Source: Escherichia coli (GTDB lineage: Bacteria > Pseudomonadota > Gammaproteobacteria > Enterobacterales > Enterobacteriaceae). From it: a stretch of DNA of 64,000 nucleotides. Numbering within the stretch: the first letter of the stretch is position 1; the number at the start of each line of letters is the position of its first letter. Where the stretch lies: assembly GCF_003334765.1 (NCBI RefSeq), contig NZ_QOWT01000006.1. The stretch is one strand, 5' to 3'. The notes under the pieces are model-generated. The model worked only from the letters and a program-made list of their open reading frames with translations, had not been told where the DNA came from and ran no database searches. Positions 39,228 to 43,903 of the stretch are shown piece by piece. The translations under genes and the position numbers were made by a program.

Positions 39228-41903
39228 TTACTTCAACATATTACGAATGACATAATGCAAAATGCCGTCGTTCTGGTAGTAGGTCAACTCCGTCGCGGTG
39301 TCGATACGACAACGGCAGGGTACGACTTCCTGGCTACCATCCGCGCGCGTAAGCGTCACCGGAACCGTCGCGCCGGGTTGTAGGTTTTGCAGATCGCCAA
39401 TATCAATCTTCTCTTCCCCGGTTAGCCCTAACGTTTTACGCGTTACGCCTTGCGGAAATTCCAGCGGCAGGATGCCCATGCCAATTAAATTCGAACGGTG
39501 AATTCGTTCAAACGATTCGGCAATCACCACACGAATACCAAGCAGACGCGGACCTTTTGCCGCCCAGTCACGACTGGAGCCTGATCCATACTCTTTCCCG
39601 GCAATCACCGCCAGCGGCGTTTGCTCCTGCTTATAGCGCATCGCAGCATCATAAATAGAGACTACGTCGCTGTCAGGTAAATGCCGCGTCATCCCCCCTT
39701 CAACGCCAGGCACCATTTCATTACGGATGCGAATATTGGCGAAGGTGCCGCGCATCATCACTTCATGGTTACCACGCCGCGAACCGTAGGAGTTAAAGTC
39801 TTTTCGCTCAACACCCCGACCTTGTAGATATCGACCCGCTGGGCTGTCGGGCTTAATACTGCCCGCCGGAGAGATATGGTCAGTGGTGACTGAATCCCCC
39901 AGCATTGCGAGGATCCGCGCACCGTGAATATCTTCCACTGGTGCTGGTGTTGCCTGCATTTCATCAAAGAAAGGCGATAAGCGAATATAGGTTGAGTCCT
40001 CCTGCCAACCGTAGGTATCGGATCGTGTGACGTTAATTCCCTTCCACTCTGCTGTGCCTTCAAAAACTTCTGCGTACTCTTTGCGGAACATTTCTGTGGA
40101 GACTTGTTCTACCGCACGGGCAATTTCTTGTGCCGATGGCCAGATATCTTTCAGATAAACCGGATCGCCTTTGCGATCATGGCCGATAGGCTCAGAAGCC
40201 AGGTTGATATTCATATTTCCCGCCAGCGCATAGGCAACCACCAGCGGCGGCGAGGCCAGCCAGTTAGTTTTAACCAGCGGATGGATACGGCCTTCAAAGT
40301 TACGGTTGCCGGACAGCACCGCACCGACGGTTAAATCGCCTTTTTTGATTGCCGTTTCGATAGGATCGGGCAGCGGCCCAGAGTTACCAATACAGGTGGT
40401 ACAACCGTATCCCACAAGGTTAAACCCCAGTTCGTCGAGATACGGTGTCAGTTTCGCTTTTGCCAGATAATCAGAAACGACTTTCGAACCCGGTGCCAGC
40501 GACGCTTTGACCCATGGTTGCCGCTTGAGGCCCAGAGTTACGGCTTTTTTCGCCAGCAAGCCTGCGGCCATCAGCACACTTGGGTTAGAGGTGTTGGTGC
40601 ACGAGGTTATCGCAGCAATGACCACAGCGCCATCAGGTAACTGATACTGATGTCCGTTCATAACATAATCGACCGGCTGGCGATCTTTATGCGTGGCATT
40701 CACTTCCAGTTCGTTACTGGCGGCAAATGCTTTTGGTACATCGGGCAGTGCAACGCGATCCTGTGGGCGTTTAGGCCCTGCCAGGCTCGCTTCAACGTCA
40801 TTCATATCCAGTTCTAACGTACTGGTAAAAATTGGTTCATCGCCCGGGTTACGCCACATGCCCTGCGCTTTGGCATATTTTTCGACCAACTCGACCTGAT
40901 CTTCGCTGCGCCCGCTTAAACGCATGTAATCGAGGGTTACAGCATCGATTGGGAAGAAGCCACAGGTGGCACCATATTCTGGCGACATATTGGCAATGGT
41001 GGCGCGATCCGCCAACGGTAGTGAATCCAGACCATCACCATAAAATTCGACGAATTTCCCCACCACGCCATGTTTGCGCAGCATTTGGGTAACAGTGAGA
41101 ACCAGGTCTGTGGCGGTAATACCTTCACGTAATTTTCCGGTAAGTTTGAAGCCCACTACATCCGGGATAAGCATGGAAACCGGCTGGCCTAACATTGCGG
41201 CTTCTGCTTCGATCCCACCAACGCCCCACCCCAGCACGCCAAGGCCGTTGATCATGGTGGTGTGCGAGTCAGTACCAACGAGTGTATCCGGATAAGCAAT
41301 CCATTCACCGTCCTGCAATTCACTCCACACTGCTTTGCCGAGATATTCGAGGTTAACCTGATGGCAAATGCCTGTGCCTGGCGGCACGACGCTAAACCGA
41401 CTGAACGCTTGCTTTCCCCATTTCAGGAACACATAACGTTCGTGGTTGCGCTCCATTTCCAGGCGTACGTTTTCTTCAAATGCCTCATCATCACCAAAAC
41501 GATCGACGGTCACCGAGTGGTCAATGACCAGGTCGACCGGTGAGAGCGGGTTAACCTTTGCAGTATCGCCGCCGAGGCGTTTAACCGCTTCGCGCATTGC
41601 CGCCAGATCAACAACGGCAGGTACGCCGGTAAAGTCCTGCATCAGCACCCTTGCCGGGCGGTAGGCAATTTCACGGTCAGCATGGGCATTTTTCAGCCAT
41701 CCTGCCAGCGCGTGGATATCCTCTTCGGTAACCGAGTTACCATCCTGCCAGCGCAGCAGGTTTTCGAGCAAAACTTTGAGTGACTTGGGTAGACGGGTGA
41801 TATCGCCCAGTGATTTAGCAGCAAGCGGCAGGCTGTAGTAGTGGTAAGTTTTATCTTTGGCCTGCAACGTGTCCTTACTGGCTTCTCGTAGGGTTGACGA
41901 CAT
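39228..41903 (-). CDS. acnA: aconitate hydratase A
   Basis: 891-aa [54 protein letters not shown]... Confidence 0.96.
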
Positions 41904-42066
41904 AGCTCCTCCTTAATGACAGGGTTGCGAAGCCCTGATTCTCTTCAGGGTGAATATTAAAGATAACACAAACATCGCGTAACGATTTGATAACAACCCA
42001 AATTGATAAAAGAGGAGAAACCTTGTGGCAAAGCAAATGACAACCCCGCCGCAGCGGGGTCAAGGA

Positions 42067-42162
42067 TCAGTGAGTAATGATCCAGAGGAGTTCGGCCCAG
42101 AAGAGCATCGACAGAGAAAACGCGCCCATCCAGGACCAATATTTCATATTTGTGTTGATCAT
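42067..42162 (-). CDS. candidate 31-aa hydrophobic small protein (MINTNMKYWSWMGAFSLSMLFWAELLWIITH)
   Basis: Hand-translated codon by codon; ATG start, TGA stop, followed within about 10 nt by a ccccgc-tgcg-gcgggg hairpin on the coding strand; below the ORF-track size cutoff. Confidence 0.4.
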   Translation of the reverse strand: MINTNMKYWSWMGAFSLSMLFWAELLWIITH

Positions 42163-42275
42163 AGGCTACACCCTTAACGGTTATTATTTTGTGTTGAGAT
42201 AACTCAAGCTGTTATTGCTGCGGTGTATTAAAAGCCCTTTAATTCATTAAAAATGGGTAATAAGAATGATGATAA

Positions 42276-42443
42276 TTATTGTTTCGGCTGATCATCTTCA
42301 GCAAACAGTTCTATAAAGGCTTGCTGCTGCGATGTTAGTTGCCAGTCGTCTGGAATAACGACGGAACATTCCCGTTTCGTTTCTGTTTCATTGTCACTAT
42401 GCTGGCATAATGGTGACGACTCCAGTTGCTCCTGACCGACCAT
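42276..42443 (-). CDS. yciX: small protein YciX
   Basis: ORF track 42276..42464; internal ATG start MVGQEQLESSPLCQHSDNETETKRECSVVIPDDWQLTSQQQAFIELFAEDDQPKQ (55 aa). Confidence 0.7.
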   Translation of the reverse strand: MVGQEQLESSPLCQHSDNETETKRECSVVIPDDWQLTSQQQAFIELFAEDDQPKQ

Positions 42444-42445
42444 AG

Positions 42446-42574
42446 TTATCCCCACACTTTCCAAATCAGCAGTGCGACAACCACCCAGAAAAGTGCAGAA
42501 CCAAGAAAAACCGCCAGCCAGGCTTTACGTTTTAATTCAGGATCGCGGCGGGGTTCCTGATTTCCAGAAGGCAT
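42446..42574 (-). CDS. ymiA: small single-TM protein (MPSGNQEPRRDPELKRKAWLAVFLGSALFWVVVALLIWKVWG)
   Basis: Hand-translated; SD gagg 8 nt upstream of ATG; stop lies 2 nt before the yciX ATG; alternative in-frame ATG at 42586. Confidence 0.6.
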   Translation of the reverse strand: MPSGNQEPRRDPELKRKAWLAVFLGSALFWVVVALLIWKVWG

Positions 42575-42904
42575 TGCTAACCTCATATAATCGCCATCAC
42601 TTATCAGCAAGACGTTGAACGATTGGTGTAATTAATCATACGATGAGACAAATCCTAAAGAAACTTTAGTCAAAAATCCAGCGAATTTACGAATCGTCTC
42701 CAGTGAATAATTCAATCTTTTGACCTGAAATAGATATTTGAAAACTGGAGTTTGCGAGGCGGGTAATTAGACACTACTTTACAGGTAATTTACCCTATAA
42801 ATATGAGGGATAAAAATATTGTGCACGGTATAGAAATAAGTAACAAAAGAGAATATATTCCGGCACCTTCGCTACATAAAAGGTGCCGAAAATAACGCAA
42901 GAAA

Positions 42905-43903
<999 letters not shown>

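Follow-up and report, generated by a model that had tools for sequence, protein, structure and literature searches.

Among the small membrane proteins induced through the PhoQ-PhoP system, MgrB has PhoQ as its partner, and MgtS has MgtA and PitA. Another small protein, YmiC, was named by VanOrsdel et al. 2018 after the chromosomally SPA-tagged protein had been detected, and ymiC also gave a signal in their tetracycline-inhibited ribosome profiling (TetRP) (PMC6001520). A study from the Yadavalli lab lists ymiC as one of 17 small proteins for which the Ribo-RET signal at the start site is stronger in low Mg2+, and GFP-YmiC was seen there at the cell periphery (PMC11429745). In the same study reporter activity was PhoQ-dependent for a fragment 5' of ymiA and negligible for a fragment just 5' of ymiC (PMC11429745), and because of this pattern ymiC is placed in a ymiA-yciX-ymiC operon. 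Under low Mg2+, neither single deletion nor overexpression of ymiC produced a phenotype, and growth was delayed by overexpression of YmiA, not of YmiC (PMC11429745). Adams et al. 2021 included ymiC-acnA among candidate regulatory uORFs (PMC7815308). The locus also has a counterpart in the catalogue of RNA families: STnc180 was defined from cDNAs of a Salmonella Hfq study, in which Northern blots showed no small RNA but species of 500-2000 nt, and it was termed a likely processed mRNA fragment (PMC2515195).

We analyzed the region between cysB and acnA in a stretch of 64,000 nucleotides of Escherichia coli DNA (NCBI RefSeq assembly GCF_003334765.1, contig NZ_QOWT01000006.1), hereafter the window. 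Positions are counted from its first letter, and an MG1655 position equals 1377734 minus the window position. The reading that we favor, with a probability of roughly 0.93, is that a short frame upstream of acnA is ymiC, a known gene for a 31-aa single-pass inner-membrane protein and the last cistron of the PhoQ-PhoP/low-Mg2+-induced ymiA-yciX-ymiC operon, and that the hairpin following it is the ancestral terminator of that operon. The genes and the ribosome-binding element of the locus are as follows.

39228..41903, minus strand: acnA (annotation)
42067..42162, minus strand: ymiC coding sequence, 31 aa plus TGA, small membrane protein YmiC, b4741 (translation identical to MG1655, family HMMs)
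42169..42175, minus strand: Shine-Dalgarno-like AAGGGTG, 6-12 nt 5' of the ymiC ATG (by eye from the sequence)
42276..42443, minus strand: yciX, middle gene of the operon (annotation)
42446..42586, minus strand: ymiA, first gene of the operon, with a transmembrane helix resembling that of YmiC (annotation, NCBIfam NF000536, hhalign)

Identity of the reading frame upstream of acnA

The ATG-to-TGA frame at 42067..42162 on the minus strand encodes MINTNMKYWSWMGAFSLSMLFWAELLWIITH. Four of the 31 residues are Trp, and residues 9-29 form a hydrophobic stretch of about 21 residues. Its counterpart in MG1655 is ymiC (b4741, YP_009518771.1) at 1335572..1335667, which has the same translation and is 100% identical to the window at the DNA level over the ymiC interval; the window protein is also identical to WP_001310756.1. 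The 1.1 kb surrounding ymiC is matched in 5,422 of 5,426 complete E. coli genomes, and among the matches listed for RefSeq E. coli the gene is annotated between yciX and acnA as "ymiC: small membrane protein YmiC". The protein passes the NCBIfam equivalog NF041484 (66.3 bits, cutoff 42) and matches Pfam PF23694 over the full model (31/31 positions, 87.4 bits, E = 4.8e-25); the same Pfam family is matched by all 11 YmiC orthologues (11/11). In other taxa GGTG or GGTA stands at the place of the E. coli Shine-Dalgarno-like element.

The length of the frame is no argument for a gene, since dozens of frames of 20-60 aa are found within this 2.5 kb and 31 codons are not beyond chance. Such an abundance of short ORFs is what one would expect if the frame were a chance opening in AT-rich intergenic DNA with an unrelated hairpin nearby, and a promoter scan of the minus strand found no sigma-70-like promoter directly upstream of ymiC, which would fit a chance frame but also agrees with the negligible published reporter activity of this segment. 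Conservation, family membership, annotation and experiment all run contrary to a chance origin, and we assign it practically no probability. It is because of the cross-species conservation and the published experiments, and not because of ORF length, that ymiC stands above chance.

The preliminary description of this DNA, made from the sequence alone, had pointed to a clean, Trp-rich, single-helix-like frame of 31 aa flanked by yciX and acnA, and this frame is present as described, with both flanking genes on the same strand. It had also predicted that the frame is translated into a hydrophobic single-helix small protein; SPA tagging (PMC6001520) and Ribo-RET together with GFP fusion (PMC11429745) establish that the protein is genuine. 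Two of the checks that it proposed, initiation-site profiling and epitope tagging, had already come out positive in published work, the former as a low-Mg2+-induced Ribo-RET signal (PMC11429745) and the latter as chromosomal tagging (PMC6001520). What does not survive is the novelty implied by the word "candidate", as ymiC is already annotated in MG1655 and in essentially all RefSeq E. coli genomes: the frame at 42067..42162 is a known, experimentally validated gene (b4741), rediscovered rather than new.

Further upstream, a scan for PhoP boxes with up to three mismatches returned 185 matches where about 131 are expected by chance; 5' of ymiA it gave two weak overlapping matches at 42645-42672, which were rejected as no better than background. 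A strong terminator-like hairpin of 13 pairs lies at 42858-42891 (minus strand), directly 3' of cysB; it presumably terminates cysB transcription and stands between that gene and the ymiA promoter region. Within cysB itself, codon 38 (window 43767) encodes Lys38 in the window and Arg38 in MG1655, a single A/G difference which indicates that the window is not MG1655 DNA but that of a close relative. In several E. coli strains an IS1 element of some 777 bp has inserted into the cysB-acnA interval (window 41850-42950), with the IS1 transposase located between the split pieces of the match.

Coding constraint, distribution and resemblance to YmiA

In order to compare the frame across species, upstream regions were fetched by using the AcnA N-terminus as an anchor, regardless of whether they carried ymiC, and four divergent family representatives with DNA were added. 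A YmiC frame of 31-33 aa was found in 11 enterobacterial taxa, comprising E. coli, several Enterobacter, Pseudocitrobacter, Superficieibacter and four further assemblies; in every carrier it lies between yciX and acnA, and the gene order cysB-ymiA-yciX-ymiC-acnA is retained in other genera. Residues K7, Y8, W9, S10, W11, S18, L20 and W22 are invariant in the 11 taxa, each of which has either E or Q at position 24, so that the conserved core reads KYWSW..F.S.LFW. Met1 is supported as the start of the protein because Met6 is not conserved.

Substitutions were analyzed over 25 gap-free codons in the 11 taxa. Mean pairwise differences at codon positions 1, 2 and 3 of ymiC are 0.34, 0.20 and 0.51, and the pooled pN/pS is 0.36, with pS at 0.69 and thus near saturation; for four other frames taken as controls the values are 0.84-1.7, and for the antisense frame with the same third positions the value is 0.53. 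The ymiC frame is the only one open in 11/11 taxa. Conservation of the frame, the third check proposed in the preliminary description, thus shows purifying selection on the peptide. Among E. coli strains that are about 3% divergent over the interval the YmiC protein is identical, whereas YmiA, YciX and AcnA differ, and the only changes seen in ymiC inside the species are two synonymous substitutions and a swap of the TGA stop for TAA.

Among 1.84 billion proteins no more than 10 representative clusters reach E <= 1e-3, so the family is narrow. At two Citrobacter loci ymiC is absent and unrelated sequence is found instead, and neither Mangrovibacter nor any of the non-Enterobacteriaceae examined has the gene. 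In E. albertii, which lacks the entire ymiA-yciX-ymiC block, cysB and acnA are only about 262 nt apart; the block is likewise missing from Rahnella, Serratia, Yersinia, Photorhabdus and Providencia, where cysB adjoins acnA. Given these absences among relatives, ymiC is dispensable over evolutionary time.

The coding constraint also bears on the record of this locus as an RNA gene. The elements concerned are listed below.

42033..42235, minus strand: full-length match to Rfam RF02079 (STnc180), 198 bits, spanning the ymiC leader, ORF and terminator
42215..42228, minus strand: leader motif ATACACCGCAGCAA, 52 nt 5' of the ymiC ATG, nearly invariant
42194..42207, minus strand: small leader stem-loop TTGAG-TTAT-CTCAA, its sequence varying between genera

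The RF02079 covariance model matches over positions 1-208 of 208 and scores 198 bits, the gathering score being 50. Such a full-length match, together with the origin of the family in cDNAs of an Hfq study, could be taken to mean that the locus is an Hfq-associated non-coding sRNA in which the ORF is incidental. The model, however, matches nine loci that bear ymiC and no locus without the ORF, the substitutions show codon periodicity, the consensus structure has no convincing covariation outside the terminator, the YmiC protein has been detected (PMC6001520), and the Northern blots of the defining paper lack a small RNA (PMC2515195). We consider the sRNA explanation highly improbable. Because the family co-occurs with the ORF and the Northern blots show only long species, STnc180 is to be read as a segment of the ymiC mRNA and not as a separate non-coding RNA; the species of 500-2000 nt fit a ymiA-yciX-ymiC mRNA of roughly 600 nt. 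A match to the snoRNA snR69 in the region was dismissed as noise (21 bits, E = 0.98).

Within the leader, the motif ATACAC-N1-3-CAGCAA occurs 52-57 nt from the ymiC ATG in 9/11 taxa and is more conserved than the YmiC N-terminus. It is not convincing as a sigma-70 -10 element. The leader helix of the Rfam model, in which 5' ACACC pairs with the Shine-Dalgarno-like GGGUGU, does form in the minimum free energy (MFE) fold of the E. coli sequence, but RNAalifold did not recover this helix and gave it no covariation support. We rejected it as a supported structure: three taxa have GGTAA in place of GGTGT and yet keep the 5' motif. Since the helix is broken in these taxa, pairing with the Shine-Dalgarno element does not explain the conservation of the motif.

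YmiC appears to have a relative within its own operon. In tblastn searches the helices of YmiC and YmiA repeatedly cross-matched, and hhalign aligned the two families over 24 columns with 93.8% probability and a score of 32.0, where 600 column shuffles gave a mean of about 10 and a maximum of 21.4. Two YmiC orthologues also weakly touch the Pfam family YmiA-like, below significance (best E = 0.025). As judged from these alignments, the simplest reading is that ymiC would have arisen by tandem duplication and shortening of the ymiA helix; convergence keeps a small share of the probability, since only 24 columns of hydrophobic helix are compared. YmiC may be partly redundant with YmiA. If it is, the redundancy would explain the lack of phenotype in single deletions, and the apparent paralogy weakens verdicts of "no phenotype" that are drawn from single mutants.

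The hairpin after ymiC and the region upstream of acnA

A hairpin follows the ymiC stop codon almost immediately, and three of its alleles were counted among complete E. coli genomes.

42041..42062, minus strand: GC-rich hairpin GACCCCGC-TGCG-GCGGGGTT, 4 nt past the ymiC stop (terminator scan, folding)
42031..42040, minus strand: interrupted T-tract TCATTTGCTT, 3' of the hairpin and weak in K-12 (terminator scan, tail comparison)
K-12-type allele: good stem with interrupted T-tract, in 3,248/5,426 genomes (about 60%)
GGGGGTTTTCATTT allele: better T-tract, in 91/5,426 genomes
Allele with a 15-nt deletion: 3' arm lost, -2.3 kcal/mol, in 1,138/5,426 genomes (21%)

The core stem has 8 pairs and a folding energy of -15.9 kcal/mol, and in a context of 56 nt the energy is -20.5 kcal/mol (z = -2.4 against shuffles). 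The region holds 5 terminator-like sites where 1.1 +/- 1.2 are expected. In 9/11 taxa a GC-rich hairpin of -11 to -19 kcal/mol begins 5-14 nt past the ymiC stop, usually beside an A-tract and with 6-7 T in a T-rich tail behind it, and RNAalifold recovers the terminator helix with compensatory CG/GC and GC/AU changes between genera. Because the helix is kept with compensatory changes and T-rich tails are found across genera, we infer that the hairpin would be the ancestral intrinsic (Rho-independent) terminator of the ymiA-yciX-ymiC transcript.

In E. coli this terminator appears to be decaying. The tail after the hairpin, GTCATTTGCTTT, is T-rich but interrupted, with a longest T run of 3; 3' of the stem K-12 has GGGGTT-GTCATTTG, where most other genera have 6-7 T; TTTT occurs in a minor E. 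coli allele, and in 1,138/5,426 genomes the 3' arm is lost. Carriers of the deletion include Nissle 1917 and ATCC 11775, the type strain, and ymiC remains intact and annotated in the deletion allele. A text search of the supplements of Adams et al. 2021 found no RNA 3' end between MG1655 1335400 and 1335799, the nearest Term-seq ends being at 1333823 and 1335835 (PMC7815308); since low Mg2+ was not used for the cultures of that study, the missing 3' end could reflect low expression. Because the T-tract is interrupted and no 3' end is listed at the hairpin, read-through toward acnA is plausible in K-12. The preliminary description had noted a hairpin and a T-rich tract on the same strand just past the stop and had called them the small protein's own terminator: the hairpin stands, whereas the T-tract is weaker than described, having no run of more than 3 T, and the terminator belongs to the ymiA-yciX-ymiC operon rather than to ymiC and is degenerate in its T-tract in K-12.

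Between the hairpin and acnA lies a block at about 41950-42010 (minus strand), TTTATCAATTTGGGTTGTTATCAAATCGTTAC...TGTTTGTGTTATCTTTAAT, which is conserved in all Enterobacteriaceae examined, including taxa that lack ymiC. The published PhoP site TGTTTGTGTTATCTTTA is located inside it at 41958..41974. The position of this conserved PhoP-site block puts the proximal acnA promoter downstream of both ymiC and the hairpin, and not over the ORF, although the preliminary description had located the frame in the acnA promoter region. A distal acnA promoter, attributed to Cunningham et al. 1997, reportedly lies upstream of ymiC. In ORF lists the same conserved block yields a spurious "conserved" peptide that ends in ...FINLGCYQIVT..LCYL. 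A second hairpin, CAGGGCTTCGCAACCCTG, is found at 41920-41937, just 5' of the acnA Shine-Dalgarno element. The one Term-seq end that is reported for this interval, tagged "uORF" at MG1655 1335835, corresponds to window position ~41899, which is 4 nt into acnA and past the second hairpin; this hairpin and this end may constitute a separate 5'-UTR regulatory feature of acnA.

These observations bear on the possibility that ymiC is mainly a cis-regulatory uORF, or attenuator, of acnA and that its peptide is secondary. Under such a scheme a ribosome at the ymiC UGA, 4 nt before the hairpin, would impede its folding and allow read-through into acnA of transcripts that start from the ymiA promoter or from the distal acnA promoter. 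The scheme gains from the short stop-to-hairpin spacing in 9/11 taxa, from the weak or deleted terminator of E. coli, with which it is plausible that the ymiC ORF is carried on a transcript running into acnA, from a reported effect of PhoP on acnA in Salmonella, and from the place of ymiC-acnA on the candidate uORF list (PMC7815308). On the other hand, selection on amino acids (eight invariant residues, pN/pS 0.36) is not needed by a pure ribosome-occupancy device, the YmiC protein accumulates and goes to the membrane (PMC6001520, PMC11429745), the "uORF" Term-seq end is found not at the hairpin but 168 nt beyond the ymiC stop, within acnA, and taxa that lack ymiC retain the same proximal acnA promoter. 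Neither the MFE folds nor the consensus folds contain an alternative anti-terminator pairing with a terminator arm; given its absence, the remaining route to attenuation would be steric occlusion by the terminating ribosome, which is possible. Taken together, we regard a primarily regulatory role as unlikely.

A broader proposal, which we hold only tentatively and consider rather doubtful, is that the terminator is a translation-sensitive gate between the PhoPQ-induced transcript and acnA that is eroding in E. coli, and that YmiC is in addition a truncated and redundant duplicate of YmiA. If this were true, erosion of the gate would put aconitase A under low-Mg2+ control in the E. coli lineages concerned. 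A lineage-variable operon terminator could in any case alter the strength of the coupling between acnA and PhoPQ in E. coli.

Proposed role of YmiC and comparison with known systems

The favored reading, that of an operon-encoded membrane protein, suggests the following course of events. Under low Mg2+ PhoQ-PhoP induces the ymiA-yciX-ymiC transcript, which would end at the ancestral Rho-independent hairpin past the ymiC stop and upstream of the proximal acnA promoter. YmiC, which probably goes back to a duplicated and truncated YmiA helix, would act through a conserved helix face formed by K7, Y8, W9, S10, W11, S18, L20, F21 and W22 together with E/Q24. By analogy with other PhoPQ-induced small proteins, this face may bind a larger membrane protein.

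As a discovery the analysis adds little, since ymiC has been annotated since 2018 and its expression, regulation and localization are already characterized. Since raw sequence was enough to recognize this genuine 31-aa gene, the case serves as a good positive control for reading of this kind.

Several described systems can be set beside this locus. MgrB and MgtS resemble YmiC in that they are PhoQP-induced, fall into a similar size class, consist of single transmembrane helices and appear in the same screen (PMC11429745); they differ from it in having known partners, whereas YmiC has no known partner or phenotype. STnc180 (RF02079) covers the same nucleotides as the ymiC segment, but its entry describes a non-coding sRNA, while these nucleotides belong to a protein-coding mRNA. 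YmiA (b4522; NF000536; PF22868) is, like YmiC, a single-pass, Trp-rich, low-Mg2+-induced small membrane protein, and the two share the helix pattern K...W...F..S.LFW; YmiA, at 46 aa, has a conserved charged N-terminal tail of 18 residues (MRLAMPSG...KRK), which YmiC lacks. The closest system is the YmiC family itself (NF041484 / PF23694; b4741), from which the window ORF differs in nothing: sequence, coordinates and genomic context are all the same, and the ORF is the founding member of the family.
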